From Synechococcus sp. (GTDB taxonomy: Bacteria; Cyanobacteriota; Cyanobacteriia; PCC-6307; Cyanobiaceae): a stretch of DNA of 64,000 bases. Every line of letters begins with the position of its first letter. Positions within the stretch are counted from its first letter, which is position 1. The position numbers were made by a program, and so were the translations under genes. The notes beneath the pieces were generated by a model that saw only the letters and a list, made by a program, of their open reading frames with translations, made no database searches and was not told the origin of the DNA. The DNA lies in NCBI GenBank assembly GCA_047284725.1, contig JBJBEO010000001.1, positions 512,001 to 576,000 on the forward strand, read 5' to 3'. Shown here piece after piece: positions 1,364 through 41,241 of this stretch.

Positions 1364-1385
1364 TCGAGGCACTGTCCCTGACCTC

Positions 1386-1412
1386 AGCCCCCGCGCAAGC
1401 GGGGGCTTTTTT
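1386..1412 (+). terminator. Rho-independent terminator after groEL
   Basis: AGCCCCCGC-GCAA-GCGGGGGCT followed by a T run. Confidence 0.9.
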
Positions 1413-1562
1413 CATGGTTGTTTTGCAAACGAGCGTTTCCCTCACAAGGTCAACGCTTGAACCTGACGCTTGCTGTGATTGTTGGCACGCGGTGTCAGCA
1501 GATCGTTGATGCGTTGACGTGCAATCTGCCCCTTCGGTGACGAAACCCCATTCGCGATGGGA

Positions 1563-11306: not shown

Positions 11307-11378
11307 TGGGCGATACTGGATTTGAACCAGTGACTCCTACAATGTCAATGTAGTGCTCTACCCCTGAGCTAATCGCCC
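11307..11378 (-). tRNA. trnV: tRNA-Val(GAC)
   Basis: Reverse complement GGGCGATTAGCTCAGGGGTAGAGC-CTACA-TTGACAT-TGTAG...GGTTCAAATCC-AGTATCGCCCA folds as a cloverleaf with anticodon GAC. Confidence 0.96.
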
Positions 11379-27277: not shown

Positions 27278-27470
27278 CTCAGCCGATCCCTTTCAACGCT
27301 GATCGCAGCAGCAACAACAGATCACCTGCAGCAATCTCCACCGGTGCATCCGGTGCCGCTCATGGCGATCTTTGCCCTGCCGAGACGTTGGCACGCGCCA
27401 AGCGAGTTCTTTTAGTCGTGAGCATCGTGCTCGATTATCCCGAGGCGATCGGCCTCAGGTCATCCAAGGC
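27278..27470 (+). repeat. 29-bp motif plus frameshifted small ORF 'A' (block Rc)
   Basis: Aligns with 38246-38430 and with the reverse complement of 33270-33454. Confidence 0.85.
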
Positions 27471-27819: not shown

Positions 27820-29676
27820 TCAGGCGACCACCAGCTGTCCTGCCCCATTGCCCCTGGCTTCAGCCATGGCCTGTTGGGCGCGATCCAGCAGGCTGTCGGC
27901 TGTATCGGCTCCTGGCACGAAGCAGCTCACGCCCACGCATGCACTGCTGAAAAGCTTGGTGTCGGTCTCTGGGTTCAAGAGGTAAACCTGCGAAATAGCA
28001 TTGCGCAAGCTGTCCGCCAAGCTGAACGCGTCTTGTGGCTGGCAGCCAATGACCAGCACCACAAAGCTGTCCTGGCCGGGACGGTACAAATGATCTGTGG
28101 TGCGCAGCCTCCTGAGAACCGCCTTGGCCAGCCCCTGCAGAAGGGCATCGCCGGCGCGGCGGCCATGGCTTTTGTTGAACGCGCCGAAGTTATCCACATC
28201 CAGACAGATGCAGGTCAGAGCCTCACCGCTGCGCTTGCAGCGCTCTACTTCCTCCTGTAGTCGCTCTTCCAGAGCTTGGGGGTTGCCGCAGCCCGTGAGG
28301 GGATCGCGGCGCAGCAGGTTTTGCAACTCGCGGCGGGAGCTGTGCAGTTTGCCGTTGGCCAGCCGCAGCCGTTCGCTCAGCTGATTGGCCTGCCGGCTGC
28401 GGTCGTTGATCTGCTCGGCCAACTGACGCAGTTCGATGACGCCCGAGAGATGCAGAGGTACTAGTTCATTGCGCTTGGCTTCCAGCGGTGCCACCGCCAG
28501 AGAGAACTCGCGCTTCACTAGGCGGCCCAGCCACAGGCTCAGCCAGGCTGCAAGCAATACCGTAATGAAAATCACTCCCAGAAGGTAGGAGCTTTGCTGT
28601 TGCATGCGGATGACCGTTGGCCCGGCCGGCTGCACGACCTGGACCAAACTGGTGGTCGTCTTGTCGACGGTGGTCGCCTCGTACTGGTGGCTGTAACTCC
28701 AGTAGCCATTGACCCATTTTTTTAGTGTCGGTTTCTGGCCACGGGGGATCAGAAGCGCCAGCTCCTTGTTGTTCACATGGGCGCGGCCGCTGTCTTGGAA
28801 GTCGGTCTCGAGGCGGTCGAACAGCGCTGGATCCGAGCTCTGTACCAGGCCATCGCTATCGATTCGTCGGAAAGCCAGCTGATCATTGAGACCCTGCAGT
28901 AGTTCGGAGCTGTTCGAGCCGGGGGCGCGGGCGATGGCCATACTCAGGGTCTTCAAACCATCGAGCGCGCCGTTCTCCACTGCGAGCCCGATCTGGTCAT
29001 TGGCGATCAGGCTTAACAGCAGGGTGGGCATGATGACAGCCATCATCACCACCACAGCGATCAACCCTCGCAGCGAAATGCCGGGGCCCTTGCCGCGCTC
29101 AATCAGCAACCAGCGGATCATCAGCACGGCGGTCATCGCCAGAACCGTGTTGAAAACTCCGTTGAAGCTCTGCTTCACCGCCACCACGGTCACATTGGCC
29201 AGGTCGATCTGCATCACCACGCCGTAGAACAGCAGCACCAACGGCGCGCCGATCAGCAGCCAGTAGACGATCGAGTAGGACACCACCCTTCCGTCGGTGT
29301 CGTTGCGGGCCGGTCCGTTCCAACGATGAAGGGCCAGCCACAGCCAGGCCAGTTCGGCGGTGAAGATCAGCACCGCCCATGGATGGCCCCAGAGTCGAAT
29401 CGTCTGAAGGGCGGCGAGTGTGGCCATTGGCACCGCCCACCAGGTGCGCCAGAGCAACAGCGCAATCAGGGCCGGCAGCGAGCCGAGAAGCACATGGATT
29501 CCGTAGAACAGGGGTACCGGCAGGGTGTTCAGCGCCACCCCCAGGCCGCTTAGCAGTGCCAGCCAGCTCAGGCGTTGCTGACGATCACGCAGAACAGCCG
29601 TGGCTTGCTCGGGATGGCCCGAGGCCAGCAACTGTTTGGGGTTCGGCGTTTGGTCGTGAGGCAGTGCTTCAGGCAT
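27820..29676 (-). CDS. Multi-TM sensor protein with a degenerate GGDEF domain
   Basis: DPLTGCGN, LDVDNF, HGRRAGD; RTTD-x5-GQDSF in place of GGDEF. Confidence 0.88.
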   Translation of the reverse strand: MPEALPHDQTPNPKQLLASGHPEQATAVLRDRQQRLSWLALLSGLGVALNTLPVPLFYGIHVLLGSLPALIALLLWRTWWAVPMATLAALQTIRLWGHPWAVLIFTAELAWLWLALHRWNGPARNDTDGRVVSYSIVYWLLIGAPLVLLFYGVVMQIDLANVTVVAVKQSFNGVFNTVLAMTAVLMIRWLLIERGKGPGISLRGLIAVVVMMAVIMPTLLLSLIANDQIGLAVENGALDGLKTLSMAIARAPGSNSSELLQGLNDQLAFRRIDSDGLVQSSDPALFDRLETDFQDSGRAHVNNKELALLIPRGQKPTLKKWVNGYWSYSHQYEATTVDKTTTSLVQVVQPAGPTVIRMQQQSSYLLGVIFITVLLAAWLSLWLGRLVKREFSLAVAPLEAKRNELVPLHLSGVIELRQLAEQINDRSRQANQLSERLRLANGKLHSSRRELQNLLRRDPLTGCGNPQALEERLQEEVERCKRSGEALTCICLDVDNFGAFNKSHGRRAGDALLQGLAKAVLRRLRTTDHLYRPGQDSFVVLVIGCQPQDAFSLADSLRNAISQVYLLNPETDTKLFSSACVGVSCFVPGADTADSLLDRAQQAMAEARGNGAGQLVVA

Positions 29677-30142: not shown

Positions 30143-31156
30143 ATGCCACATGCGTCTGAGCCATCCAGCAGCAATCAGGTTGTTTCCATAAGGCTGGTAA
30201 TCAGTTTTCTGGCTGTCCTGATCGGTGGCGCTTCAGGGCTGTTGTGGTTGCTCAGCCGCCAGAGCCAGGAGCTGGTGGTCGCGATTACCAGTTGGCCGGG
30301 CTACGAATACTTCTACTTAGCTGAACAGGAAGATCTGGGACGTCCTTTCGGGCTCGACCTCAAGATTCAGCAGTACACCTCGCTAGAGGATCAGCGGAAG
30401 GCCTTTGTCCGGGGAGAGATGCCGGCGATTGCTACAACCGTTCCCGAGGCGATCGCCATCTGCCAAGAGATGCCGGCCCGCTGTCCGCAGCTGGTACTGG
30501 TGCTCGATGAATCCAGTGGGGCCGACAGGATCGTTGCGCGCCGCGAGCTGGATGAACCGGTCCAGTTGCAGGGCCGCCGTATCGGACTTGAACGCTCGGT
30601 GCTGGGGAAGTTCCTGTTGGTGCGCAGCCAGGGAGACCGACCCACTGCCTTCGACCAGTTCCGACTGACGTACGACGGCCCTAAGGCCTTGGTGGATGGA
30701 CTGCAACGCGGTGATCTCGACGCAATCGTGAGCTATGCCCCGCACGACACACCTCTGCTCAAAGATCCCCGCTTCCGAGTGGTGTTCAGCAGCCGAGCAA
30801 TCCCCGGCGAGGTGGTGGATGTACTCGCAGTTGACCCAACCTATGCAAGCCGCCACCGCGAGAGGGTGAAGGCCCTTGTTCAAGTCTGGTGGGCGGCTCG
30901 CGCCTTCTCCCGTCGCTGGCCAGAGAAGTCGATCGCCACGATGGCCCAGCGCCAGCAGAGCACTCCAGAAGCCTTCCGACTCATGGAGGTGGACCTGAGC
31001 TACCCCGGCCCGGCGGATCAGCCTCGGCTTCTGGCCGCTGAAGGGCCGATCGCCAGATCGATGAAGACGATGGCCGCGTTGATGGAGGCCTCCGGTGCGA
31101 TCCCTGCCGGAGTGCCACTGCCACAGATCAGCACGGCCTATTTAGAGGCCCGGTGA
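30143..31156 (+). CDS. ABC-type substrate-binding protein (NMT1/SsuA-like), membrane anchored
   Basis: WPGYEYFYLA, LVLDESSGAD, SRAIPGEVVDVL. Confidence 0.85.
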   Translation: MPHASEPSSSNQVVSIRLVISFLAVLIGGASGLLWLLSRQSQELVVAITSWPGYEYFYLAEQEDLGRPFGLDLKIQQYTSLEDQRKAFVRGEMPAIATTVPEAIAICQEMPARCPQLVLVLDESSGADRIVARRELDEPVQLQGRRIGLERSVLGKFLLVRSQGDRPTAFDQFRLTYDGPKALVDGLQRGDLDAIVSYAPHDTPLLKDPRFRVVFSSRAIPGEVVDVLAVDPTYASRHRERVKALVQVWWAARAFSRRWPEKSIATMAQRQQSTPEAFRLMEVDLSYPGPADQPRLLAAEGPIARSMKTMAALMEASGAIPAGVPLPQISTAYLEAR

Positions 31157-32427
31157 TGAGCTATCTGCGCCAGTGGTTCGGGCGAGAAACACTGCTGCAT
31201 AGCCGTGTTCAGAAGAATCTGTGGATAGAGGTGGTGTTGGTGGCCACCGCAGCTTCGGCCCTGATGGCATTGGTTTCCGGTGCGGTTGTTCTCTACCAAG
31301 GGGTTAACCGCCTCCAGCGGCAGAGCAGTGATCTCCAGCGCCAGCTCAGCGATGGCTTCACCAGCTATCAGCCGCTCTACAACCTGCAACGTCAGCTGCA
31401 GCAAGCTTCTTCCTCCAGGGAGGCCCTGGGCGCCATGGTGTTCGACCGACGCGGTGTTGTCCTGGCTGCCTCCAACAACGCCCTGGTGGGCCTGACGCTG
31501 GAACAGGTATTGCAGCTTCCGGCCGAGCGCCGACTGAAGGCCCTGTTCCGCGACTGCCCCTCACTGTCCACACAGTTGGCCTGCCTCAGCCGCGAGACGC
31601 AAGTGTTCACCGGTCCGCTGCCAGTAATCGGCGGCGATGTGGCCCTGGCGATGCGCTCCTATCCCCTGTCGCTGGAAGATGGCCAGCGCTTTGGTGAGAG
31701 GGCGACTTTGATCACCGTCCGCGATTCACAGCCGGCCGCCCGCGAGGCGGTCTCCTACACGCTGATGGTGTTTCTAGCTGGATTGCTGCCACTGCTGATG
31801 GGCTGCGTCGGTCTGATGCTGCGCCTGCGCATTCACCTGATCCCCGAGCTGCTACGCCTGGCCCAGGTTGACGCCCTCTCCGGCGTGCTCAATCGCCGCG
31901 CCTTTCTGGAAACTGCCACCGATCTTCTGCAGAGGGCCCGCCAGATCAACATGTCAATCACTCTGGCGTTGATCGATATCGATTACTTCAAGAGGATCAA
32001 CGACAGCTACGGCCACGACGCCGGTGATCATGTGATCCGTCAGGTGTCCGACTTGCTCTCTCGCTTGGTACGCAGTGACGATCTGGTGGGACGCTTGGGC
32101 GGTGATGAGTTCGTTCTGCTGTTACAGATGCCGAACAAGACGGCAACCCAAAAGCTGGAGTGCATCCTTGAGCAGTTAGGGAGTACTGACGCAGAAGTGT
32201 GCGAAAGCAAGTCGGTCACCATCAGCATTTCTGTGGGAATGGCCAGCAGCAGCGGCCATGCCGCTTACGAGCTCAGCGCGCTCTTGAAAGCTGCCGACGC
32301 GGCTCTCTATGTGGCCAAGGACCGTGGCCGCTCCCAGGTGGTGAACCTAGAGATAGAACAGGAGCATTCCAAGGGGGGGCGTCGCAGACCCTTGCGTCAG
32401 AGCGATTGGGAAATCCGTGGAGCCTGA
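31153..32427 (+). CDS. Diguanylate cyclase with a two-TM periplasmic sensor
   Basis: DALSGVLNRR, DIDYFKRINDSYGHDAGD, RSDD-x5-GGDEF, ADAALYVAK. Confidence 0.93.
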   Translation: MMSYLRQWFGRETLLHSRVQKNLWIEVVLVATAASALMALVSGAVVLYQGVNRLQRQSSDLQRQLSDGFTSYQPLYNLQRQLQQASSSREALGAMVFDRRGVVLAASNNALVGLTLEQVLQLPAERRLKALFRDCPSLSTQLACLSRETQVFTGPLPVIGGDVALAMRSYPLSLEDGQRFGERATLITVRDSQPAAREAVSYTLMVFLAGLLPLLMGCVGLMLRLRIHLIPELLRLAQVDALSGVLNRRAFLETATDLLQRARQINMSITLALIDIDYFKRINDSYGHDAGDHVIRQVSDLLSRLVRSDDLVGRLGGDEFVLLLQMPNKTATQKLECILEQLGSTDAEVCESKSVTISISVGMASSSGHAAYELSALLKAADAALYVAKDRGRSQVVNLEIEQEHSKGGRRRPLRQSDWEIRGA

Positions 32428-32933
32428 GGAGACTCCCTTCCTTTAGTCGGCTACACAATCTCCCTGGCATTGCTGCCCTTAGTAGACCTCTTAGTGAGAC
32501 ACCTTTGTGAAGTCACTTGCTGCGATAGCTCAAGATGTGTTGCTTCTGAGCCGTCAAAAATTGATGCAACTGCCGTGAGGCTTATGCAATCACTTTCGAA
32601 GGCGGTGAAAGCAAAGCAGGTGGCATGCGACATAGCGTGTGCCCATCATCGAGTCTGCGCACATGGCAAAGACGCTCTTTTGTGAAGGCCCGTCGTCGAT
32701 GACGTGGCGGCATCGAATTTTGAAAACCCATGGCAGTACAGGCTGACCAGATTGTGAGAAGAACAAGGCGGGTCATCAATAGCCATCGTCCTCGCTGAAT
32801 TGACTATCGAATTGATTGCGCTGGATCCGCTACCCCTGCATGGGGACATCATGTGATCTCAAAGTGCCTCTTGATGCAGGCACGTTTCGGTTTGAAAGGG
32901 GTGCATTGCTCTCTTTCGTTTCGAGCCAAGCAC

Positions 32934-33207
32934 AGCTGCTGGCTACTGAGATACCTCGGTGAACATCGGACCCACCCGGTCTTGAGCATCGCCTGCCACG
33001 CCTCAATGGCGTTGTGCCTGAGCATCCGCCTCACGACAGGTTGCCCACCACCACGTAGCGGCCTGGTCTCCACCTCAACCCACTTGGCATGGGCTGAGGC
33101 CAACGCATTCCGGAAGCAGACCACCTTCTGCTCCTGTTCATTCAGCAGCCAACCTTCCCCATTTATCTGAGGGTGTGGTTCAGGGTGCTGGCTCTTGCGT
33201 TCGCACC
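32934..33207 (-). pseudogene. DUF1651-like copy (start lost, 3' frameshift)
   Basis: Inverted near-identical copy of 40170-40433. Confidence 0.7.
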
Positions 33208-33209
33208 GA

Positions 33210-33266
33210 TCAGAACCCGCCAGGCTCGTTCGGCTTCTCACCTGACTCGAACGTGGTGCGGAGCAT
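33210..33266 (-). pseudogene. Internally deleted copy of secreted protein 'B'
   Basis: MLRTT fused directly to FESGEKPNEPGGF*. Confidence 0.8.
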
Positions 33267-33269
33267 GGG

Positions 33270-33454
33270 TTTCAGTCTTGGTTGACGGTGAGGCCAATCG
33301 CCTAGAAATGATCGAGCACGGTGCTCACAGCTGCAAGCACCTGCTTGGCGCGTGCCAGCGTCTCGGCAGGGCCTTGGCCCCGGCTGATGCACCGGTTGAG
33401 ATTGCTGCGGGTGACCTGTTGCTGCTGCGATCAGCGTTGAAGGGGATTGGTTGA
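33270..33454 (-). repeat. 29-bp motif plus small ORF 'A' remnant (block Rc)
   Basis: QQVTRSNLNRCISRGQGPAETLARAKQVLAAVSTVLDHF*AIGL. Confidence 0.85.
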
Positions 33455-33461
33455 TTTCTGC

Positions 33462-33589
33462 GCAGGAGAGCACCAGCCCCCTTAGGCGAAGAGGCCGGTG
33501 CTCTGTGGGACCCCTCTATGCCCTCAAGGCCCCACAGGTGAATCAACTCCCGACTCATGAGGGATCGATACCCCTAAGTGGGGACATTG
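33462..33589 (-). ncRNA. Structured ~125-nt element, copy E2
   Basis: Four hairpins shared with 33883-34013 and 38114-38238. Confidence 0.55.
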
Positions 33590-33804
33590 ATCTGTATTGA
33601 GGGAGCCGTGTTGAGAGCCTGAGAAAGATCATCAAATTGATGGATTCGGCATGCATCTGATTTAGAAAACTCTGAATCAGATGCGCAAAGTCGCCTCACT
33701 AGTAAGTCCTTGTCGACATCTGAAAGAGAACCATCTGGAGACCATTTCAGGCAGGTCCTGCCGATGCAAGTGTCGTCTGTTGTTCCTTTAGAGATCAGGG
33801 TCAT
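33574..33804 (-). CDS. Small hypothetical protein between elements E3 and E2
   Basis: GGAGG RBS upstream of the ATG; CIGRTCLKWSPDGSLS. Confidence 0.7.
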   Translation of the reverse strand: MTLISKGTTDDTCIGRTCLKWSPDGSLSDVDKDLLVRRLCASDSEFSKSDACRIHQFDDLSQALNTAPSIQINVPT

Positions 33805-33882
33805 TTACACCTCCCTTGCCTTGTGTCCAACTTGGGACAGCGATCTCCATTGCAGATACCCCCTAACGAGGACGTTTGCTCC

Positions 33883-34013
33883 TGCATGAGAGCACCAGCC
33901 CCCGGAAGGGAGAGGGCAAGTGCTCCATGGGGCTCTCGTTCTCTCACCAAGAACCCAACAAAAGGACTCAACTCCTGATCCATGAGGGATCGATACCCCT
34001 TGGTGGGGACAAT
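33883..34013 (-). ncRNA. Structured ~125-nt element, copy E3
   Basis: Same stems as E1 and E2 with different loops. Confidence 0.55.
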
Positions 34014-34062
34014 GAGAGGGCTGAGGGTCAGGTCCTGGTTGACCGAGATTCTCCAGAGGCGC

Positions 34063-34093
34063 AAAAAAAAAACGCCCCTGGCTCACAGGGGCG
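34063..34093 (-). terminator. Rho-independent terminator
   Basis: CGCCCCTG-tgagc-CAGGGGCG followed by T10 on the minus strand. Confidence 0.85.
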
Positions 34094-34300
34094 CTTCAAT
34101 CGCTATTTGTCTGACGTGTTCAGTAGCCAAGACCGTCCAGGCTGTCGGTTCCGAACATGGTGACTTCACGTTCATCGTTGAAGGGGATTGGTTGAGGTCA
34201 GGGCATGGCCGTGATTTTTGATCTTTTGTGGTTGTCGGTCATGATCAGATCCTGCAGTGCTGGGCGGCCATGGCCTTAGTTCACAGGTGACAGACCTCGA

Positions 34301-35389
34301 TCAAGACATAGAGAAAGCAGAAGGGTCCGGAAGGACACGCCAAGCCTCTAACTCCATGGCAAATGCCGCATGGCGCTGAATCGCATCATCCATGAACAAA
34401 GCGACACGGATCGATGCAGCATCGCTTGAGGCAAAACCATGCATGGCGTCACCAGCCGTCATACACCGAAGAGCCGCCAACCTCCAGTCGCGCCAAGCAT
34501 CGTCAAGTCTGTAATGACAGATGCCGCGTTCAATCAGAACAGCATGCCAAGCCTGAACAAGATCCTCGTAACGCCCCTGCCTTTGCGCAACAGGCGTACT
34601 TCCTCCCACTAAAAAGGCCACATCAAGGGCGGCGAGTCCACGGGCAGCCCACGACCAGTCAAGGATGACCGACTTAGGCGCAGCAGCATCAGTATCGAAC
34701 AACAGATTATCCGCCCTGAGATCACCGTGAATCAGAGTCCATTGAGATTCAGATAGAGCTTTATTAATCGCATCACTTTGCTCAAGCACACAAGAATAGA
34801 GCTTGCAGACTTCCGAACCAAATCTCACCCCATACGTCGCGAAAAAATCCTCAACAATCTCTTGCTTGGGCGCCCCAAACCACAGACCGTGGTGGGGCAA
34901 CCAATCGTGGTCTACCAAAGCATCATCCATCCAAAATTCTGCATGAATTGCCGCCATATTCTTTACAGCAGACAGCGTTTGTTCGTAGGTCAGACCCACC
35001 ACTTGATCGCCAGCCTTCAGATCCGAAAGATCCTCCATCAACAACCAAGCGGGGGCCTCTCCACTGCTGGCGTACACGACAGGCTGGTAGCCCTTCAGCC
35101 GCGGCGTGCAATGTTGATAAACACCAACCTCACGCTGAAAAGCATTGTTCAAACGACTGAGTTCGTTGAACATTGGATCAGCTGTTTCACTCTTTAGGAT
35201 GAGTGTTGATGGGCACTCATTCGCAGACTCCGCTTCAAGACTGAGACGCCAAGCTGTTGACTGAAGACCGCGTCCATCGCCAAGACGATCGGCCTGCAAA
35301 GCCTTGACCCTGCAGCCAAGCGCATCACCAATCCATTCGGGCTCTGGCGCCCTCACAATCGAAGGATCGAAGATGCTGCCATCAACCAT
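34301..35389 (-). CDS. APH/choline/ecdysteroid-kinase-like phosphotransferase
   Basis: LLMEDL, Brenner motif HGDLRADN, ILDW. Confidence 0.85.
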   Translation of the reverse strand: MVDGSIFDPSIVRAPEPEWIGDALGCRVKALQADRLGDGRGLQSTAWRLSLEAESANECPSTLILKSETADPMFNELSRLNNAFQREVGVYQHCTPRLKGYQPVVYASSGEAPAWLLMEDLSDLKAGDQVVGLTYEQTLSAVKNMAAIHAEFWMDDALVDHDWLPHHGLWFGAPKQEIVEDFFATYGVRFGSEVCKLYSCVLEQSDAINKALSESQWTLIHGDLRADNLLFDTDAAAPKSVILDWSWAARGLAALDVAFLVGGSTPVAQRQGRYEDLVQAWHAVLIERGICHYRLDDAWRDWRLAALRCMTAGDAMHGFASSDAASIRVALFMDDAIQRHAAFAMELEAWRVLPDPSAFSMS

Positions 35390-35827
35390 TCACGGGCTCG
35401 TCAACTGGGATCAAGTTAGCCTCACCATCCAAGAGAAGCCGCCCGTCAGAACAGGGGTGATACAAGCACAACCAATCAACACAATTCACAGAGGTCCACA
35501 GAAGGTAGGCAGCTCAACTTGCGGGCCACTATGGTTCTGAACAGACTACGCATAACTTTCCAACGCCATGAATCCGTGAAAGCAACACGAAACTGCTAGG
35601 GATTGTCCGCAAACAATTGGCTGTCATTGCTGATTACAGGACAGGCAGAAGCTGGCATTAGTTACCAGCTTCTATCTGCAGTCGCTGCCAGTAACCGTCT
35701 GAACTAGGGCGGCATTCTTGCGCCTGGGTTGGGCGCCCGATGGCATCAAAGTAGTTGGCGCGGACTAACTCCCAGCGAGAAGCCATGTGGAGCTGGTCAG
35801 CGGTGCAGATGTATTAACGTCTTGCTA

Positions 35828-36055
35828 TCAGTCAACCTCCAGCCGACAGGCGGCAATGGCAATGGCAATGTTGATTAACTTGCACGCCTTGGACAGCTCA
35901 CGTTGAGCGGCAATCAGATTGCGTGCATTGGCTGCATTTAGCTCAGTGTTCTGCAAGATGTCTTCCAGGTCTGACAGTGCAGCTTCTGCCGTGGGGAGGA
36001 TTTTCTGAGAGAGCTGAATCGATAGCTCTCGGTAGTTAGCTGGGTGTCGTTTCAT
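35828..36055 (-). CDS. Small helical hypothetical protein
   Basis: MKRHPANYRELSIQ..., 75 aa, amphipathic. Confidence 0.55.
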   Translation of the reverse strand: MKRHPANYRELSIQLSQKILPTAEAALSDLEDILQNTELNAANARNLIAAQRELSKACKLINIAIAIAACRLEVD

Positions 36056-36090
36056 TGTTGGAACCCCGCCGAAGCGGGGCGTGATGGTGT

Positions 36091-36252
36091 TCAGGCGAGG
36101 CAATAACGGCGTGCAGTGGTCTGAGAGATGTGCAGGCGTTCAGCGATGACGCGATAGGTGTGGCCGCGTTTGCGCCAGCGGCGGGCTTTCAGCTGTGGGC
36201 TCTCTGTGAGCCAGAGCAGGAAGACGATCGGCAGCAACAGTGCAACTGGCAA
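36091..36252 (-). CDS. Small membrane-anchored helix-turn-helix protein (5' end probably disrupted; not in ORF track)
   Basis: VALLLPIVFLLWLTESPQLKARRWRKRGHTYRVIAERLHISQTTARRYCLA*. Confidence 0.6.
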   Translation of the reverse strand: MPVALLLPIVFLLWLTESPQLKARRWRKRGHTYRVIAERLHISQTTARRYCLA

Positions 36253-36306
36253 GCAGCATCACCAGCCGTCTTTTCAGTATCTGAATCGACAAGCGAACAA
36301 GACCTA

Positions 36307-36699
36307 GTGATCAAACGGCTGCTCTCCCTAATGGCAGTGCTGCTCGCCAGTTGCACTGCTGCTGCTGGACCGTACCCCGAGGTGCAGATCGCTCGTTGCT
36401 ACGACGGCGATACCTGCACCAGCACCACCGGAGAGAAGATCCGACTGGCCTGCATCGATACGCCAGAGCTCCAGGGGCGCAATGCTGATCCGATTCCAGC
36501 GAAAGCTGCACGGGACTATCTGCGTGGCTACCTGAAAGGGAAGACCATCACCATCCGCCGGATCGATACCGATCGCTATGGCCGCACCGTGGCGGAGCTG
36601 TTTGCTGATGGCGTGAACGTCCAGCAACAGTTGGTTGCGAGCGGACATGCAGAGATCTACCGCCGTTACGCAAAACCGTGCGAATGGGTCAATCACTGA
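36307..36699 (+). CDS. Thermonuclease (SNase-like), probable lipoprotein
   Basis: LLASC lipobox, YDGDT, IRLACIDTPE, DRYGRTVA. Confidence 0.9.
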   Translation: MIKRLLSLMAVLLASCTAAAGPYPEVQIARCYDGDTCTSTTGEKIRLACIDTPELQGRNADPIPAKAARDYLRGYLKGKTITIRRIDTDRYGRTVAELFADGVNVQQQLVASGHAEIYRRYAKPCEWVNH

Positions 36700-36735
36700 G
36701 TCGCAACAACATCACTGCTGTAGACCCCACCCGCG

Positions 36736-36819
36736 ACTCCACTGCCCCCTCCAGTTGATCCAGCTCTGACACGACCCGCAAGCACAACTGTTCAACGCAG
36801 AGCATCAGAAGCGATGGCA
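36736..36819. repeat. Scaffold block Ra, copy 2
   Basis: Near-identical to 25635-25718. Confidence 0.85.
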
Positions 36820-36838
36820 GACCATCAACCAGGTTCGG

Positions 36839-37051
36839 CTACTTGCGCCCAGCAATTGCGTCGGTTATGTCATCGATAATTTGACAAAAATTTGTGGAAG
36901 CAAAGGGGGGGAATTCGCAATTCCATGCCGATAAAGCAAAATAAGCCTCAGCCTTCTGTCGCTTATCAAGGTTTGCAGATGCTGGCGATGCCAAGCTGAT
37001 TGCCAACAAAGCAGCAGCTCCAACGCTAGTGAGCGCTTTAGAACGACGCAT
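36839..37051 (-). CDS. Small secreted protein
   Basis: Signal peptide ending ASA-NL; two Cys. Confidence 0.6.
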   Translation of the reverse strand: MRRSKALTSVGAAALLAISLASPASANLDKRQKAEAYFALSAWNCEFPPFASTNFCQIIDDITDAIAGRK

Positions 37052-37270
37052 GATGTGGCCCTTTAATACCTAGCCTTGTTTAGCTGAGTGTGCTCTTTCT
37101 CGGCAACGAGGTGTGTTTGGCTGTAGAAGACCTTCCCCCCTCTGGTTGCCTTTCTCAGTCGTATGCCATCGACTCTGGTGAGTGTGGCCACGCAGGGTTC
37201 ACCCGTGAGATAATGAGGTCATCGACAGGGCAGCCACAGGCGCCGGTCGATCACCACAGCATTCAATCCA

Positions 37271-37426
37271 ATGACCAACGCCGAACGCGCGGTGGTCCTC
37301 TACGAGCTCTACACGAAGCTCGATGAGTTGATCACCGCTGAGGAGATGGAAACCTTCCCATTCCTCGAACATCTTGCCGACCTCATTGAAGATCTGGAGG
37401 GGGAACCCCCGCCTTCGTCGTCTTAA
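37271..37426 (+). CDS. 51-aa acidic helical protein (block Rb; not in ORF track)
   Basis: MTNAERAVVLYELYTKLDELITAEEMETFPFLEHLADLIEDLEGEPPPSSS; decayed paralogue at 26397-26488. Confidence 0.6.
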   Translation: MTNAERAVVLYELYTKLDELITAEEMETFPFLEHLADLIEDLEGEPPPSSS

Positions 37427-37702
37427 TCAGCTTGTTGGGAACTCAACCTGATCAACAGGAAAGGTTGAATTTTGGCATTTTTCGACCCATTTAACCTTTC
37501 GAATAATATCGTCAGTGCCTCTAATAGGGAGAGGCCAGTCGGCTTTCGCTCTAGCCCAACAAGGTCTTTGACGATCAAATCTCCTCATATTGAGCTGCTC
37601 TTGCTGAATGACTGTCCAGCCCAGCCATACGGAAGGGGGGGCGATGACAATGGTCCAGGCAAAAATGACGAAATTCTTGGTGGTCTTATCCATGTAGCCC
37701 AC
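37427..37702 (-). CDS. Small single-TM hypothetical protein
   Basis: 91 aa, N-terminal TM segment, lower GC. Confidence 0.55.
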   Translation of the reverse strand: MGYMDKTTKNFVIFAWTIVIAPPSVWLGWTVIQQEQLNMRRFDRQRPCWARAKADWPLPIRGTDDIIRKVKWVEKCQNSTFPVDQVEFPTS

Positions 37703-37770
37703 TCTGCACCGGTCCTGATGCGAGTGACACCCTCGCCTTCAGCTCGTCGGGCTCATAACCCGAAGGTCGA

Positions 37771-38085
37771 TCAGGCGGCTTTGACAGCAATGGATCGCTC
37801 AACGGTCCACAGGGTGCGATTGCGCTGGCGGTGCTTGCCGAAGCGATACCCGAACGCCTCATCACCATCAGCGAAGCCATCGATGCCTTTGACCCCCAAG
37901 GCAGTCAGCTCATCAGTGGTGAGCACCAGGGCGTGATCAGCAGCGTCGGCAAGACCCTTCGCTCGCTTCAAGGGATCAGACGATGCGGCCTGCTGTTGCC
38001 CCATCACTGACGCCATCACAGACATCAGTGCAGCGGTGTCTGGCGGGACAATCCCGGACTGTTCAGGACCGTTTAAAAGCGTCAT
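37771..38085 (-). CDS. Hypothetical protein, possibly 5' truncated at a repeat
   Basis: 104 aa; the ATG abuts the 29-bp motif at 38086. Confidence 0.55.
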   Translation of the reverse strand: MTLLNGPEQSGIVPPDTAALMSVMASVMGQQQAASSDPLKRAKGLADAADHALVLTTDELTALGVKGIDGFADGDEAFGYRFGKHRQRNRTLWTVERSIAVKAA

Positions 38086-38113
38086 CTCAGCCGATCCCCT
38101 TCAGCGCTGATCG

Positions 38114-38238
38114 CAATGTCCCCACCTAGGGGTATCGATTCCTCATTGGTCGGGAGTTGAGTCCTTTTGTGGGGCTTTGACAGACGGAGCCCCATAGAGC
38201 ACTTGCCCTCATGAGCCCGGGGGCTGGTGCTCTCCTGC
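38114..38238 (+). ncRNA. Structured ~125-nt element, copy E1
   Basis: Four hairpins; bracketed by the 29-bp motif at 38086 and 38246. Confidence 0.55.
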
Positions 38239-38245
38239 GCAGAAA

Positions 38246-38431
38246 TCAGCCGATCCCCTTCAACGCTGATCGCAGAAGCAACAGCAGATCACCCGCAGCA
38301 ATCTCTACCGGTGCATCCGCCGGGGCTAAGGCCCTGCCGAGACGCTGGCACGCGCCAAACAGGTGCTTGCATCCGTGAGCACTGTGCTCGATCATTCCGA
38401 GGCGATTGGCCTCATCAACAACCAAGACTGA
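38246..38431 (+). repeat. 29-bp motif plus small ORF 'A' remnant (block Rc)
   Basis: QQITRSNLYRCIRRG*GPAETLARAKQVLASVSTVLDHSEAIGLINNQD*. Confidence 0.85.
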
Positions 38432-38436
38432 AACCC

Positions 38437-38787
38437 ATGCTCCGCACCACACTCACCGCCATCGCATCCACGGCTGCGCTGATCGCTGTCAGCGAACCGA
38501 TGGATCCACCAGTGGCCCAGGCCGACACCGTGAAGGATGCGCTCTGCGTCCTTTCCCGCCACGACGACTCCATCCCCAGGGAGGAGTTCCGCTGCGACTT
38601 CACCCAGACCATGGGCGGCGCTTATGTCGACAGCACGCGCTGGGCATTCATCTTTCCCCACTCCGAGCAGGACAAAACCTTCAGTCGGCAGAACACCGAA
38701 GATTTCATTCGCTGGACCCGTGAAGGTCAATACACACTGACCCTGTTCCAAAGCGGAGAGAAGCCAAACGAGCCCGGCGGGTTCTGA
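38437..38787 (+). CDS. Secreted protein family 'B', intact copy
   Basis: MLRTTLTAIASTAALIAV leader; paralogue at 25072. Confidence 0.75.
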   Translation: MLRTTLTAIASTAALIAVSEPMDPPVAQADTVKDALCVLSRHDDSIPREEFRCDFTQTMGGAYVDSTRWAFIFPHSEQDKTFSRQNTEDFIRWTREGQYTLTLFQSGEKPNEPGGF

Positions 38788-38852
38788 TCGGTTGGAACGT
38801 AAGAGCCAGCTCAGGTTCTGCAAATCACTGATCAAGGCTTCAATCAGACACT

Positions 38853-38881
38853 AAAAAAGCCCCGCCGAAGGGCAGGGCTTT
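38853..38881 (-). terminator. Terminator of the RTX-like gene (possibly bidirectional)
   Basis: A6-GCCC(C)GCC-gaag-GGCAGGGC-TTT. Confidence 0.7.
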
Positions 38882-38904
38882 GCGGGTCTTGATAAGGCAG
38901 CGCC

Positions 38905-40017
38905 TTACACAATTAGGAAGCCATTGACAACATCGTAGGTGTTGCCGAATTCGAGAGCAACTGCGCCCATTTCATTCACATCGTCATTTTGATCAATGGT
39001 GCCGCTAATGCCGCTAATCAGTTCAAAGTTACGGATAATCATACGGCCCCCCGAACCGTCGACGAGGTAGGGAGACCCTCCGTTTTGGCCATCGACATAG
39101 CTATAAGTACCATTACCGAGCACAATTTTGTCTTTAGTGCCTGCAACTTCTCCGTCTCTTACAAACCCGTCACCGTCGAATCTAATCCCGGAGCTAAAAC
39201 CATCTCCAATCAAGGTGTCGTTGTCTGCGCCAAGATAAATACGCCCGAACCCTTCGAAACCGCCAGTAAGTGCATCGACCGTATCATTGCCTGCGCCCGT
39301 AATAATAGTATTTCTAGAAAAAGTGAAGGAAATCCCGGCGTCGTCACTGGTGCTAACACCAGTAATTGAATCGTCGCCGCTACCGGTTCTGATAAATCCT
39401 CGGGTAAGGCTGATCCCAGTCGCCCCCTCTCCGTAAATTGAATTATTTCCGTCGCCCAATTGTATGTTTGAACGATCTAAATATACCCCGACAGCTCCAC
39501 CCGTTCCGTTAACCGAATCATTGCCATCTTCGGCTAGAAGGAGAAGGCCCGAACTTTCCAGATTAATTCCATGACTTCCACCTGTTCCATTGATTGAGTT
39601 ATTTCCATTGCCCATGTCTATTAGTGATAATTTTGCTGATACCCCATAGACTCCCCCTTCTCCATTAATCGTATCGTTGCCATTGCCAGTAGTAAGCGCG
39701 GACTCAATTAGGTATACACCATTGAGTTCACCAACACCAACAAATGTATCGCTTCTGTCGCCTGTAATCAGTCTAGATCTAACTAATAGGATGCCATCAT
39801 CTTCAAGCAGAACGTTTCCTTCGGAATCTTCTTCGCCATTGCCGACAATGGTTACTTTTTTGTTTAGCGACCCAGCCTGCCCTCCCCCAGTGACTGGATC
39901 AGTACTAGTTGTGTCCAATACTTGACCATCCAGCACCCAAGAGCTTGCTTTCAATGATGCACGGCTTTGAGGGGAAAGCTCTTGGAATGCTTTCAGAAGA
40001 TCAAAATGATCGGACAT
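38905..40017 (-). CDS. RTX-like Gly/Asn/Asp-rich calcium-binding repeat protein (start uncertain)
   Basis: Repeats TGNGNDTING, MGNGNNSING, DGNDSVNG, LGDGNNSIYG, TGSGDDSITG, TGAGNDTVDA; lower GC. Confidence 0.8.
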   Translation of the reverse strand: MSDHFDLLKAFQELSPQSRASLKASSWVLDGQVLDTTSTDPVTGGGQAGSLNKKVTIVGNGEEDSEGNVLLEDDGILLVRSRLITGDRSDTFVGVGELNGVYLIESALTTGNGNDTINGEGGVYGVSAKLSLIDMGNGNNSINGTGGSHGINLESSGLLLLAEDGNDSVNGTGGAVGVYLDRSNIQLGDGNNSIYGEGATGISLTRGFIRTGSGDDSITGVSTSDDAGISFTFSRNTIITGAGNDTVDALTGGFEGFGRIYLGADNDTLIGDGFSSGIRFDGDGFVRDGEVAGTKDKIVLGNGTYSYVDGQNGGSPYLVDGSGGRMIIRNFELISGISGTIDQNDDVNEMGAVALEFGNTYDVVNGFLIV

Positions 40018-40169
40018 TAAAAAACAGTAACTAGCTTCAAACTTCGTCGGCAGGCGCTTGGTTTGTCTTAAGTCCTCATGAGAATCGGGTGAGCGTATTT
40101 CTTGCGTTTCTATCTGACTCATTTCCAGATCGGTTACAAGACATGCGAGAGAGAGCAGTGTTCTGATCG

Positions 40170-40433
40170 ATGGAACGCAAAAGCCAGCACCCTGAGCCGC
40201 ACCCTCAGAAAAACGGGGAAGGCTGGCTGCTGAACGCACAGGAGCAGAAGGTGGTCTGCTTCCGGAATGCGTTGGCCTCAGCTCATGCCAAGTGGGTTGA
40301 GGTCGAAACCAGGCCGCTGCATGGTGGTGGGCGGCCCGTCGTGAGGCGGATGCTCAGGCATAACGCCATCGAGACATGGCAGACGATGCTCAAGACCGGG
40401 TGGGTCCGGTGTTCACCGAGGCATCTCAAGTAG
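40170..40433 (+). CDS. DUF1651-like picocyanobacterial protein
   Basis: GEGWLLN...RRMLRHNAIETWQTMLKTGWVRC. Confidence 0.7.
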   Translation: MERKSQHPEPHPQKNGEGWLLNAQEQKVVCFRNALASAHAKWVEVETRPLHGGGRPVVRRMLRHNAIETWQTMLKTGWVRCSPRHLK

Positions 40434-40446
40434 CCAGCAGCTACTT

Positions 40447-40854
40447 CTAAAAGCCGGACATGATCCTCAGCCTTGTGGCGATGAATTTCTTGGTCTGTTC
40501 CCTGGTGTCTTCGCTGCACCTGGCGGCTCGCATTGTGATTCCGTAGCCGAGCTTCGTAGGGACATTCAGCTCGATTCCGTTGCGGCCAAGGAATAAGCGA
40601 GTGGCGATAAAAGACATCCGCTTGTTGCCTTCTGCGAAGCCGTGGTTTTTGTTCATCGCCAGCATTAGATGGGCGGCCAAGACGAAGCGATCGTCTTCCT
40701 CGGCGTAAAACCAAAGCTGCTGCGGTGCGGCCAAAGCCTGCTCCAGCTTGTGGGTGTCGATACCGGGAATCCCTCCGTAAAGCTTCAACATCCGGGCGTG
40801 AGCCGGTTCAAGCCACTCCCGCTTCAACCAACTCGGCTCAACCGGCCGAGGCAT
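40447..40854 (-). CDS. Fic/Doc family toxin
   Basis: HGFAEGNKR motif; YGGIPGI..LEQALAAP. Confidence 0.9.
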   Translation of the reverse strand: MPRPVEPSWLKREWLEPAHARMLKLYGGIPGIDTHKLEQALAAPQQLWFYAEEDDRFVLAAHLMLAMNKNHGFAEGNKRMSFIATRLFLGRNGIELNVPTKLGYGITMRAARCSEDTREQTKKFIATRLRIMSGF

Positions 40855-41063
40855 CAGCTATCGGAAAGGAGCCGCATCAGCTCGTCGTTTTCCTCGAAAG
40901 TCCTCTCCAAGGCCCTGAGCATTCCGGCGTCACCGCAGACGTCAGAGTTGGCCTGGGGCAGATCAACGACAGAGCGTCGCTTCACATCAACGCGCCGGAC
41001 GAACTGCATCGACCGACCTTCAGGGCCGGGGTTGATACGGATTTTCCGCTTCTCCTTCTCCAT
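40854..41063 (-). CDS. Putative antitoxin of the Doc toxin
   Basis: 69 aa, TGATG coupling to the toxin start, C-terminal FEENDELMRLLS helix. Confidence 0.65.
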   Translation of the reverse strand: MEKEKRKIRINPGPEGRSMQFVRRVDVKRRSVVDLPQANSDVCGDAGMLRALERTFEENDELMRLLSDS

Positions 41064-41088
41064 GCCGTCGATTCTGGACTTGCCGGCT

Positions 41089-41241
41089 TCAGACCGCAAG
41101 CAGTTGGGCCAAGGCCAGGGCGTCGGCCACATCGAGGCAGACCTGGCCGTCCATCGGGTGGGCCTGGCTGAGGGCAGTGTGGAGGCGGCCGATCAGGGCC
41201 AGCCTGGGGTTGTCCTCCACAGCACTGGTGGCCTGATTCAC
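41089..41241 (-). CDS. Possible 50-aa hypothetical protein
   Basis: MNQATSAVEDNPRLALIGRLHTALSQAHPMDGQVCLDVADALALAQLLAV. Confidence 0.3.
   Translation of the reverse strand: MNQATSAVEDNPRLALIGRLHTALSQAHPMDGQVCLDVADALALAQLLAV

Follow-up and report, generated by a model that had tools for sequence, protein, structure and literature searches.

A multi-copy four-hairpin element in a marine Synechococcus genome: a candidate RNA module related to the leader of a small cysteine-rich protein gene

Members of the Yfr2 family are short structured transcripts of ~60-130 nt that occur in several copies per genome at non-conserved loci and only in this cyanobacterial group (PMC6778093). As far as that account describes such RNAs, the ~125-base element reported here resembles the Yfr2 family, Yfr1 and Yfr10 in being short, structured, multi-copy at non-conserved loci and restricted to the group. 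It differs from them in being known from sequence alone, in matching no Rfam model and in its far narrower distribution, its head motif being present in 2 of the 401 genomes of the family (7 and 2 times; reversed control, 0). The loop of its second hairpin, P2, shares only UCCUCA with what we take to be the Yfr1/Yfr10 motif, and even this is absent from four of the seven copies; membership of the Yfr RNAs is unsupported, no Rfam cyanobacterial RNA model giving a match.

The BOX elements of pneumococci, the ERIC sequences of enterobacteria and REP/BIME repeats are ~100-150 nt long, modular and orientation-dependent, form strong RNA folds, lie after genes and between convergent genes, and vary in copy number between species. 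The element resembles them in all these respects: size, modular build, strong RNA fold, orientation dependence, location and variable copy number. Unlike BOX, ERIC and REP, however, it has only 7-8 copies, lacks terminal inverted repeats and carries a sequence-specific head common to the leader of one gene family, and its relatives have intrinsic terminators. The attC sites of chromosomal integrons, such as the Vibrio cholerae repeats, are species-specific, roughly 125 nt long and fold strand-specifically. Here, too, ~125-nt repeats with a strand-specific fold flank small ORFs of one orientation (element-ORF-element at 33462-34013), and a Fic/DOC toxin-type gene in the element's island recalls the attC cassette setting. 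In contrast to attC, the element lacks R''/R' core sites, forms four independent hairpins rather than one long imperfect end-closing hairpin, is few in copies and has no integron integrase or attI, and its G-U-rich stems and terminators point to RNA. Type III toxin-antitoxin loci comprise ToxI repeats (about 36 nt), a terminator and toxN. In relatives of the element, tandem RNA repeats followed by terminators likewise precede a same-strand protein gene, but the units are 125-180 nt long rather than about 36 nt and, unlike toxN, the linked gene encodes a protein of 56-76 aa with four Cys and no match to a known family, in which no sign of endoribonuclease function was found.

Copies of the element and their fold

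The earlier note had placed three copies in the window (the whole 64,000-nt stretch that was analysed), and all three were recovered at exactly those positions (listed here together with a solitary hairpin):

38114..38238, + strand: element copy A, hairpins P1-P4 (RNA fold -59.1 kcal/mol, z -3.52; 140.7 bits, model R1)
33462..33589, - strand: element copy G (132 bits; 79% identity to copy A)
33883..34013, - strand: element copy D, upstream of a 76-aa ORF on the same strand (126.4 bits; 83% identity to copy A)
32828..32849, - strand: P1 hairpin standing alone (ATGTCCCCATGCAGGGGTAGCG), directly next to the stop codon of a DUF1651 gene (repeat family D4)

The 2.58-Mb marine cyanobacterial genome as a whole holds seven full or near-full copies and one divergent copy. 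BLAST with copy A against its own genome returned the seven (97-131 nt long and 78-100% identical), a partial match of 43 nt and a 14-mer match due to chance. When the seven were used to build a covariance model, this recovered the same seven at 84-141 bits and, at 42 bits, the eighth, which is divergent but full-length (genome 1948364-1948515); copy E is truncated. The motif GTCCCC-N5-GGGGTRT-N12-32-GAGTTGA occurs seven times in this genome, and the backwards-read pattern not at all. Neither the copies nor their relatives matched an Rfam family, and no description of the element was found in the literature search, which agrees with the earlier view that it belongs to no named family. A hint at c-di-GMP as ligand is unsupported: its sole basis is two GGDEF genes left of the island, and no riboswitch model matches.

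The 5′ head of the element consists of P1 (GUCCCC-N5-GGGGUAU), which carries a conserved bulge and a G-U pair and is followed by GUAU, and of P2 with a GGAGUUGA box; the 3′ part is made up of two variable hairpins, P3 and P4. Conserved pairing comprises 39 pairs in four helices across the seven copies, with standard pairs in 94.6% of 258 pair cells as against 42.5-57.4% when partners are slid by 1-3 columns. The four stems thus stand as they were first described, except that P2 needs one correction: columns 29-44 form a C-A mismatch where y is C (four of seven copies), and we read the local hairpin CGATyC/GrrTCG as an alternative that competes with P2. The loops of P3 and P4 vary in sequence and length among copies, as had been noticed. 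There is no pairing between the two ends of the element, and its four hairpins are separate structures. After P4, the copies of this genome have only a pyrimidine-rich CUCCUGCG tail, and the terminator scan found no U-run after P4 and no terminator flag there; P2 plus GTCCTTTTGT in copy A was flagged as terminator-like.

The fold is specific to the strand on which the stems had been named. The seven copies contain 57 G-U/U-G cells versus 6 A-C/C-A cells, which bears out the claim that G-U compatibility is confined to one strand, and eight relatives contain 28 G-U and 0 A-C cells. Fold z-scores were -3.07 to -3.74 on the named strand versus -0.42 to -1.49 on the opposite strand, with minimum free energies of -58 to -66 versus -42 to -54 kcal/mol. 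The significant covariation that had been proposed as a test is absent among the seven in-genome copies: two pairs change on both sides, as they do in 108 of 500 shuffles, and the covariation score was reached by 29 of 500. Given that several of them are recent segmental duplicates (C and D, F and G), these seven copies are not independent.

Relatives in other species and the small four-cysteine gene

Distant relatives of the element were identified in two other species of the genus and at 8 of 29 metagenome loci. They have P1 and the GGAGUUGA box in common and retain a middle hairpin with compensatory changes. At their ends stand same-strand intrinsic terminators, the canonical terminator being formed by P4 or by an additional hairpin. 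Contig 58 of genome G061 carries three tandem units, the first of which terminates in GCATCGGC...GCCGATGCTTTTTT, while the units of G019 and the metagenomes terminate in CCCTGGAG...CTCCAGGGTTTTTCTTTT. Across eight relative units, with the structure taken from RNAalifold on the same alignment later used for the pair counts, pairing in P1, P3 and the terminator reaches 98.3%, both partners change in four P3 pairs (matched by 3 of 500 shuffles) and the covariation score was reached by none of 500 shuffles. Covariation support for the predicted structure comes from these more distant relatives, not from the seven in-genome copies. The G-U excess and the relatives' same-strand intrinsic terminators favour folded single-stranded RNA over duplex DNA. 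The element looks narrowly distributed, lineage-restricted and patchy among species: BLAST found it in none of 40 other genomes, and nothing was found in phage and viral collections.

The earlier claim that every copy is followed by a small ORF of like orientation holds for copy D, which lies upstream of a conserved 76-aa ORF, but not for copies A and G, where the 3′ end of a convergent ORF comes first and the same-strand gene follows ~200 nt further on. Two features define the locus next to copy D:

33574..33804, - strand: small protein gene, 76 aa, four Cys, between copies D and G, with a strong Shine-Dalgarno sequence (AGGGAGG)
33858..33873, - strand: P1-like hairpin (GTCCTC-GTTA-GGGGGT, then ATC) at the head of the 5′ leader that belongs to the 76-aa ORF, with the start codon ~55 nt further on

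Homologues of the 76-aa ORF, 56-76 aa in length, occur in 9 of 46 genomes of the genus, and searches of Pfam and NCBIfam gave no family match for the protein. The start of the small four-Cys ORF is preceded, at a distance of 55-65 nt, by P1 and GTAT in G000 (two loci), G061, G019, G016, G044 and metagenome contig L053, and elements adjoin the small ORF on one strand in G000 (two loci), G061, G019, L053, L058/L068 and L071. The P1 loop of copy G contains the TAG stop codon of the upstream 76-aa ORF. Pairing of P4 and the tail with the ribosome-binding region of the small ORF was no better than with 600 control start regions.

An RNA module would be transcribed, and the searches for promoters and transcripts count against this. 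In the relatives' tandem arrays, P1 abuts the U-tract of the preceding terminator, which leaves no room for an ordinary promoter, and a promoter scan found no sigma-70-type promoter near the window copies. In one RNA run (a metatranscriptome; 0.06 of sampled words), only a low-depth contig of a relative's element was detected, and contigs cannot show strand or ends.

Flanks of the copies and the convergent gene family

Several copies adjoin the 3′ ends, or "tails", of a convergent gene family, whose stop codon lies within 8-9 nt after copies A, B, F and G. The relevant features in the window are:

38087..38115, + strand: 29-nt direct repeat present on either side of copy A, left copy (repeat family D2, 97% to 38246-38274)
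38246..38452, - strand: convergent ORF remnant, conserved C-terminus ...DAPVEIAAGDLLLLLRSALKGIG before the stop, ending 8 nt from copy A
33173..33454, + strand: paralogous remnant of a convergent ORF, with its end 8 nt from copy G (repeats I2 and I3, 91-95% to the arm beside copy A)
34018..34097, - strand: intrinsic terminator of the upstream unit (34069-34097) and conserved spacer (GCGCCTCTGGAGAATCTC...CCTCAG) before copy D
27286..27350, + strand: further tail copy, from a 3′ end of this gene family, without an adjacent element (genome 539286-539350)

The 29-nt direct repeat duplicates the 3′ end of the convergent ORF: the first 29 nt (+ strand) of the remnant at 38246..38452 are the right repeat of copy A, and the left repeat matches the reference tail at 26 of 29 positions, a value reached by none of 500 shuffles. 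Only copy A has a left flank with significant similarity to the tail; the similarity is marginally significant for H (p 0.006) and not significant for B, D, F and G. The terminator and spacer on the left of copy D also precede copies B and C and one element-free paralogous site, T1 (genome about 422478), where this flank is joined directly to the tail. Equivalent sites hold nothing (T1), one element (B) or element-ORF-element (C-F, D-G). As signs of insertion at the DNA level, the direct repeat of copy A and the element-free site count against reading the element as an RNA module.

Copies A and G are 79% alike in their interior versus 91-95% in their flanks, and this greater divergence of the interior suggests exchange between copies. 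Given that A, G and F share duplicated flanks, one old insertion followed by segmental duplication suffices for them. The unit and ORF of one relative sit after a core transporter gene whose neighbours differ in 11 orthologous loci. No tyrosine recombinase was found within the window, the nearest to any copy being a fragment 2.4 kb from copy B, and the only DDE (rve) match is a fragment adjoining copy F. Of the identities that the earlier note had offered (cis-regulatory RNA, sRNA, or an attC- or REP-like DNA site), a folded RNA is favoured and attC is unsupported: RYYYAAC/GTTRRRY core sites are missing from 6 of 6 copies, the ends are unpaired and no integrase lies nearby. A MITE is likewise unsupported (no terminal inverted repeats in 6 of 6 copies, ends unpaired).

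Weighing the explanations

To our mind there is about an even chance that the element is a lineage-restricted structured RNA module, related to the leader of a small gene and multiplied by duplication or recombination in genomic islands. The P1 head that the element has in common with the leader of the small four-Cys gene points to a leader-related small RNA or untranslated-region module. Such a module would be read from the strand named in the earlier note, and P1 may be a recognition handle, a binding site common to the element and the small four-Cys mRNA; a regulatory role might then be that of, for example, a co-regulated sRNA or of a decoy that draws off the P1-binding partner. Its spread within low-GC islands would have involved segmental duplication as well as recombination where genes of the convergent family have their 3′ end.

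It is rather unlikely that the element is instead a non-autonomous mobile or recombinational DNA element marking cassette boundaries (attC-, MITE- or small-integrative-module-like), whose hairpins would arise in single-stranded DNA or be sites for a recombinase and which would insert, alone or with a small ORF as cargo, at the 3′ end of a target gene family. The target-derived direct repeats around copy A, the empty site T1, the varying content of equivalent sites, the exchange suggested by copies A and G and the changing neighbours of the transporter gene fit this explanation, as do in-genome copies that are 78-87% alike yet have no BLAST match in other genomes. The copies nevertheless lack terminal inverted repeats and attC core motifs and form separate hairpins with unpaired ends, recombinase and DDE genes are represented by fragments, and viral collections hold nothing similar. 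Moreover, flank-tail similarity is confined largely to copy A, a single old insertion with segmental duplication explains A, G and F, and both the large excess of G-U pairs and the terminators speak for RNA. It is also unlikely that the element is a BOX-, ERIC- or REP-like structured intergenic repeat, selfish or nearly neutral, which would be co-transcribed with its neighbours and would at most stabilise 3′ ends, terminate weakly or insulate convergent genes from each other. P1 does begin 0-3 nt past same-strand stop codons (DUF1651 at 32849, the 76-aa ORF at copy G, and the L031 and L053 genes), copies lie between convergent genes, P3 and P4 are exchangeable within a modular build, copy A has its terminator-like P2, and the species distribution is patchy. 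By contrast, a P1 head conserved across species and in the leader of one gene is not expected of a neutral repeat, the 7-8 copies per genome are few and lie only in islands, and the relatives bring full terminators with them.

A cis-regulatory leader, riboswitch- or attenuator-like, controlling the gene immediately downstream on the same strand is decidedly unlikely, even though no terminator separates copies D and C from the 76-aa ORF directly downstream of them and the terminator-bearing units of relatives precede an ORF, as in attenuation. What closely follows copies A, B, F and G is a convergent stop codon, not a same-strand start; copy E is truncated, a separate leader of the ORF, headed by P1, lies downstream of the element, no riboswitch family matches, and the proposed ligand traces only to the neighbouring GGDEF genes. 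It is highly improbable that a protein-coding frame, intact or decayed, on either strand explains the conservation, a possibility that the earlier note had raised. One opposite-strand frame is stop-free in four of six full copies and one same-strand frame is open through four closely related relatives, but in 2 of 8 units the latter closes after no more than 31-43 nt from P1, and no start codon in it comes with a ribosome-binding site. In all six frames of P1-P2, 2-5 synonymous versus 8-12 non-synonymous codon differences were counted, with no synonymous excess in any and the highest synonymous count, 5, set against 8-9, whereas the adjacent tail, read in the convergent ORF frame as a positive control, gave 14 versus 2. 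Indel lengths do not follow multiples of three, and a single 1-nt indel separates the nearly identical copies F and G. The P3 indels are +4 and +6. Overall, the element looks like a new small-RNA or leader module tied to the gene for a tiny cysteine-rich protein.

Copies and fold of the element

The three stretches named in the earlier note proved real and homologous when their sequences were read and compared, and the source genome, a single contig of 2,581,549 bases, holds others. BLAST of copy A against this genome returned seven copies of 97-131 nt at 78-100% identity, together with a 43-nt partial match and one chance 14-mer. A covariance model (R1), built on an alignment of the seven copies (A2), recovered all of them from the genome at 84-141 bits and added a divergent eighth copy, H. 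Copies C and D are recent duplicates of one another, as are F and G. Copy E ends prematurely inside P4, the last of the four hairpins, and the P4 of copy H is rebuilt from different letters.

Table. Copies of the element in the source genome
Copy A: window 38114-38238, plus strand; found by BLAST and model R1
Copy D: window 33883-34013, minus strand; found by BLAST and model R1
Copy G: window 33462-33589, minus strand; found by BLAST and model R1
Copies B, C, E and F: genome at about 379.7, 782.65, 789.9 and 783.1 kb, respectively; outside the window
Copy H: genome 1948364-1948515; divergent, full-length, eighth copy; 42 bits with model R1

The four stems proposed for the element, encoded as 39 pairs on alignment A2, hold: standard pairs fill 94.6% of 258 cells, compared with 42.5-57.4% after a shift of the 3' partners by 1-3 columns. 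As described, the P3 and P4 loops vary in sequence and length while their stems remain paired. P2 was borne out in part, in that the stem is kept but the pair at columns 29-44 is a C-A mismatch in four of the seven copies; it also has a competing alternative short hairpin. The earlier note had further argued that the base changes are G-U compatible on one strand only. We counted 57 G-U/U-G cells versus 6 A-C/C-A cells, in agreement with this claim, so that the complementary strand would bear many mismatches. Fold energies were -58 to -66 kcal/mol on the named strand and -42 to -54 on the opposite strand, and z-scores from dinucleotide shuffles were -3.5, -3.7 and -3.1 versus -1.2, -0.4 and -1.5. 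Covariation was not significant in the seven in-genome copies alone: two pairs changed on both sides, a number equalled in 108 of 500 shuffles, and the covariation score was equalled in 29 of 500. Only copy A has a helix that closes the element by pairing of its 5' flank with the 3' tail, and this was discarded as a general feature.

We also considered whether a reading frame accounts for the conservation. In the indel-free P1-P2 segment, none of the six frames had an excess of synonymous changes (2-5 synonymous versus 8-12 non-synonymous); F and G differ by a single-base indel, and P3 carries indels of +4 and +6. As a positive control for the codon test we used the 69 aligned bases immediately 3' of copies A, B, F and G, which gave 14 synonymous versus 2 non-synonymous changes in one opposite-strand frame with a stop at its end (...DAPVEIAAGDLLLLRSALKGIG, stop). 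Protein-coding readings of the element were ruled out on both strands, and we regard a coding frame as an extremely improbable source of its conservation.

Setting in the genomic island

The copies in the window lie at 32-41 kb, where G+C content is 0.47-0.57 as against 0.61-0.66 alongside. This stretch contains island-type genes (two DUF1651 genes, an EcKL/APH-like kinase, a staphylococcal-nuclease homologue and a Fic/DOC gene) and many small ORFs without known family. The earlier note stated that each copy precedes a small ORF on its own strand. This is so for copy D, which precedes an ORF of 76 aa (33574-33804, minus strand), but not for copies A and G, which have the stop codon of a convergent ORF 8-9 nt away. 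The TAG stop of the 76-aa ORF falls in the P1 loop of copy G, and the same element-ORF-element unit recurs at genome 782.6-783.2 kb with copies C and F.

Copies A, B, F and G are each followed at once by a tail, which is the 3' end of a gene belonging to a convergent family, its stop codon 8-9 nt from the element end. There are six tail copies in the genome, four adjoining elements and two (T1 and T2) standing without one. The C-terminus of the family is strongly conserved (...APDAPVEIAAGDLLLLLRSALKGIG/D, stop). The intact 198-aa member matched no known family, and among 45 other genomes of the genus only one (G003) has homologues of it.

Table. Tail sites and the inverted duplication
Genome 422478-423071 (L081:2976-3572), minus strand: T1, intact 198-aa member of the tail family, with a hydrophobic segment
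Window 27286-27350: T2, tail with no element beside it
Window 38246-38452 (minus strand) and 33173-33454 (plus strand): short remnants of the tail gene
Window 32947-33481 versus 38219-40428: inverted segmental duplication, arms 82-95% alike, with copies G and A one per arm

Several other features of the surroundings were recorded. On the inverted duplication are DUF1651 genes, a tail ORF and the gene of a signal-peptide protein, intact at 38437-38787 but with an internal deletion in the left arm; the right arm has an extra gene of 444 aa (38905-40239, minus strand). Upstream of copy D, at 34100-34245 (minus strand), lies the remnant of an 84-aa gene that is intact at L081:2629-2883; its last ~25 codons are retained (...PFNDEREVTMFGTDSLDGLGY, stop), and a preceding short ORF is joined to them in frame via a TGA. 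A solitary P1 adjoins a DUF1651 stop codon at 32828-32849. About 45 nt past it come a GAGGA ribosome-binding site and a cysteine-containing 46-aa ORF, so that the whole stretch (32700-32849, minus strand) is possibly a further small gene headed by P1. At its right edge the island has a 135-aa Fic/DOC-domain ORF preceded by a 92-aa ORF without known family (40447-41132, minus strand), arranged like a toxin-antitoxin pair. Just left of the low-G+C island are two GGDEF (diguanylate cyclase) genes at 27820-29676 (minus strand) and 31153-32427 (plus strand), the sole basis of an earlier hint at c-di-GMP. Outside the window, at genome 783474-783578, a fragment of an IS3-type integrase core (rve) adjoins copy F and cuts the convergent tail gene; the genome has no other rve match.

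Relatives and the small four-cysteine protein

By sequence, the element is restricted to one species: BLAST of copy A found no match at E <= 0.001 in 40 other genomes (24 of the genus and 16 of other families). A search of 46 genomes of the genus with model R1 returned matches at E <= 0.1 in five genomes, the source genome among them. The matches in G060 and G047 covered P3-P4 only, in very G+C-rich DNA, and that in G046 covered P2 only; all three were set aside as doubtful. On contig 58 of G061, three tandem units on a single strand scored 38.0, 23.6 and 14.7 bits (filters off), the first terminating in a textbook intrinsic terminator, with a homologue of the 76-aa ORF downstream on the same strand; these units are convincing relatives. 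Searching with the ORF led to a further genome, G019, which has an array of units around the ORF (locus L031).

In the source genome, the conserved 5' head of the element consists of P1 and of P2 with its GGAGUUGA box. In G019 and in metagenomes, a unit is made up of P1 (GTCCCC-N5-GGGGTAT), the box GGAGTTGA, a hairpin in the middle and either a single intrinsic terminator or a pair of them (CCCTGGAG...CTCCAGGGTTTTTCTTTT), abutting the next P1 directly. Of 401 genomes of the family, from 64 genera, 2 have the combined head motif, the source genome seven times and G019 twice; a reversed control gave 0. A strict core pattern of the source genome's type had 0 matches in the metagenome scan; a looser pattern matched 29 loci on metagenome contigs, of which 8 were judged real relatives and 21 chance matches in unrelated, mostly coding DNA. 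The phage records and viral contigs searched gave no match. In eight type II units, with a structure derived by RNAalifold from the same alignment, P1, middle hairpin and terminator are 98.3% paired, four middle-hairpin pairs are changed on both sides (matched in 3 of 500 shuffles), and the covariation score was matched in 0 of 500. G-U pairs in these units outnumber A-C cells 28 to 0. Metagenome contig piece L052, which scores 19.9 bits with model R1, has a tandem array of another kind, with GAGTCCCCATCGTGGGGGG-type hairpins, and is at most a possible relative. When the insertion boundaries of the relative on metagenome contig L053 were compared with 11 orthologous transporter loci, the downstream DNA was unrelated in all, so that no empty site could be aligned.

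The 76-aa ORF has a strong Shine-Dalgarno sequence and belongs to a small protein family with homologues in 9 of the 46 genus genomes.

Table. The small four-cysteine (4-Cys) protein family
Family: 56-76 aa, 4 Cys; signature C-x-G-x-T-C-x-K-W...DGSLS...RLC...C; 13 invariant columns in 12 sequences
Homologues also at sequence pieces L028, L029, L031, L032, L033, L037, L038, L039, L041, L053 and L068

Neither Pfam nor NCBIfam has a family for this protein, a search of 5.8 billion proteins returned three clusters, none of them named, and the Atlas returned unnamed clusters only. AlphaFold gave a weak model of it, a beta-hairpin and a helix with a mean pLDDT of 65.5, and Foldseek with this model found nothing in the PDB at E <= 0.001. 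A Nif11-like small gene lies right behind the 4-Cys ORF in G019 and related metagenome contigs (L031 at ~1300-1490, minus strand; L058; L068); in L031 its frame seems to shift midway.

The small ORF start is preceded, at a distance of about 55-65 nt, by a P1-like hairpin with GTAT behind it. This hairpin occurs at both loci of the source genome, in G061, G019, G016 and G044, and on metagenome contig L053; it is degenerate in G023 and at a second G061 locus, and absent at L029 and L030. The leader variants GTCCTC/GGGGGT and GACCCT/GGGGGT keep their pairing via U-G, on the named strand only. With a P1 head in both the element and the ORF leader, the two thus have a 5' module in common. We rejected the idea that the C/U-rich P4 loop and the CUCCUG tail act as an anti-Shine-Dalgarno sequence on the small ORF's ribosome-binding site, since in duplex energy 43-90% of 600 control start regions were at least as good.

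A gene for a trans-acting sRNA has its own promoter and a Rho-independent terminator around a short non-coding transcript. Intrinsic terminators are present in the relatives; in the source genome P4 is followed by no U-tract, and no consensus promoter was found near the element. In the tandem arrays of relatives, a terminator and the P1 after it stand too close together for a normal promoter to fit between them, so units may be produced through read-through with processing, or P1 may have a DNA-level role. The sole RNA run identified, a metatranscriptome (run X1; 0.06 of sampled words), yielded a depth-4.6 contig of a relative's element; its contigs carry no strand or end information and gave no evidence of transcription. 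Aligned to positions 32800-38900 of the window, this contig has a 5' half like that of A (38114-38178) joined to a 3' half like that of D (from 33902), which suggests that relatives bear elements with other combinations of the variable hairpins.

Known families and the reading of the element

The earlier note recognised no named family, and Rfam matched neither the copies nor their relatives. Rfam 15 found only a tRNA at 11307-11378 in the whole window. At E up to 10, seven matches turned up in positions 32500-39500; all were weak, none scoring above 23.7 bits or reaching its threshold, and only sR55 (38068-38131; 16.8 bits versus a threshold of 35) touches an element; relatives L031, L022, L053, L058 and L017 gave nothing relevant. 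At the title and abstract level, the literature searched on marine picocyanobacterial islands, on ncRNAs and repeats, and on tycheposons describes no such element.

An attC site has an inverse core RYYYAAC and a core GTTRRRY at its ends and forms one imperfect hairpin with R''-R' and L''-L' pairing, and attC arrays sit beside an integron integrase (a tyrosine recombinase) and attI. The attC-like site suggested earlier was not upheld: neither motif lies within 45 nt of either end, on either strand, in six of six copies. The predicted and conserved fold of the element has four separate hairpins, with end-to-end complementarity not above shuffles, and PF00589 matches fall at ~320, 364, 382 (fragment), 1157-1159 and 1672 kb, with none in 512-576 kb. 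MITEs are marked by terminal inverted repeats and a short target-site duplication at each copy. Here, the alignment score of the 5' end with the reverse-complemented 3' end was reached in 7-98% of shuffles (six of six copies); copy A is flanked by a 29-nt direct repeat, and flank similarity was not significant at B, D, F and G. By the tests run, the element is neither an attC site nor a MITE, nor does it belong with the Yfr1/Yfr2-type RNAs. The published account of Yfr1/Yfr10 describes a conserved single-stranded Yfr1 motif within which UCCU is needed for target binding (PMC6778093). Rfam gave no Yfr1/Yfr10 match, and the P2 loop region has UCCU only in copies A, B and E, with CCCU in C, D, F and G.

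We hold it unlikely that the copies represent a cassette or mobile element acting at the DNA level. That account would fit the direct repeat around copy A (38087-38115 and 38246-38274, 97%), which is the convergent gene's 3' end, and also site T1, where the left flank of copies B, C and D (terminator and GCGCCTCTGGAGAATCTC...CCTTCAG) is joined straight to the tail, so that equivalent sites show nothing, one element, or element-ORF-element. However, the element is without terminal inverted repeats or attC core motifs, no integrase or transposase adjoins the window copies, the tail-like repeat left of B, D, F and G is not significant, and the G003 homologues of the convergent gene have a stop codon with no element behind it. 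One old insertion followed by segmental duplication could explain the duplicated flanks common to A, F and G. A decayed tail repeat left of every copy, significant only for A and marginal for H, was dropped as a general rule. We judge it quite unlikely that the element is a BOX/ERIC-like structured repeat without a specific role, and very unlikely that it is a cis-regulatory leader. Riboswitches and leaders have a constant 5' UTR position and an expression platform; the position here is not constant, as four of the seven copies (A, B, F and G) end 8-9 nt before the convergent ORF's stop and only C and D precede the small ORF.

The original observation is thus confirmed and extended. Our best reading, to which we give about an even chance of being right, is that these are structured, strand-specific RNA modules forming a new family with a narrow distribution. 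Such a module would share its 5' head with the leader of the small 4-Cys protein gene, have variable hairpins in its middle and a terminator or terminator remnant at its 3' end, and would have multiplied within genomic islands. A long shot is an undescribed RNA-protein cassette system of P1-headed modules and the 4-Cys protein, in which P1 would be recognised in the leader and tandem terminator-ended units would act as decoys, giving autoregulation by titration or a toxin-antitoxin-like balance, with moves between island sites by recombination at the P1-side boundary. The recogniser of the GUCCCC-N5-GGGGUAU hairpin would then be the 4-Cys protein or another factor.

Protein regulators are few in marine picocyanobacteria, which depend to a large extent on small RNAs. 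Most strain-specific functions reside in their flexible islands, but the control and shuffling of the genes there are poorly understood; to our knowledge, these organisms are mostly without classical mobile elements. The element has a narrow range, two to four species within a single genus plus a few contigs from marine metagenomes, so its wider impact is moderate. If transcribed, the modules would form a new class of RNA borne on islands, its head motif clearly defined. Being found also in the leader of a conserved small cysteine-rich protein, this motif would make P1 and the 4-Cys protein a testable pair. If the element is a cassette boundary at the DNA level, it would offer a route for moving small genes in picocyanobacteria.
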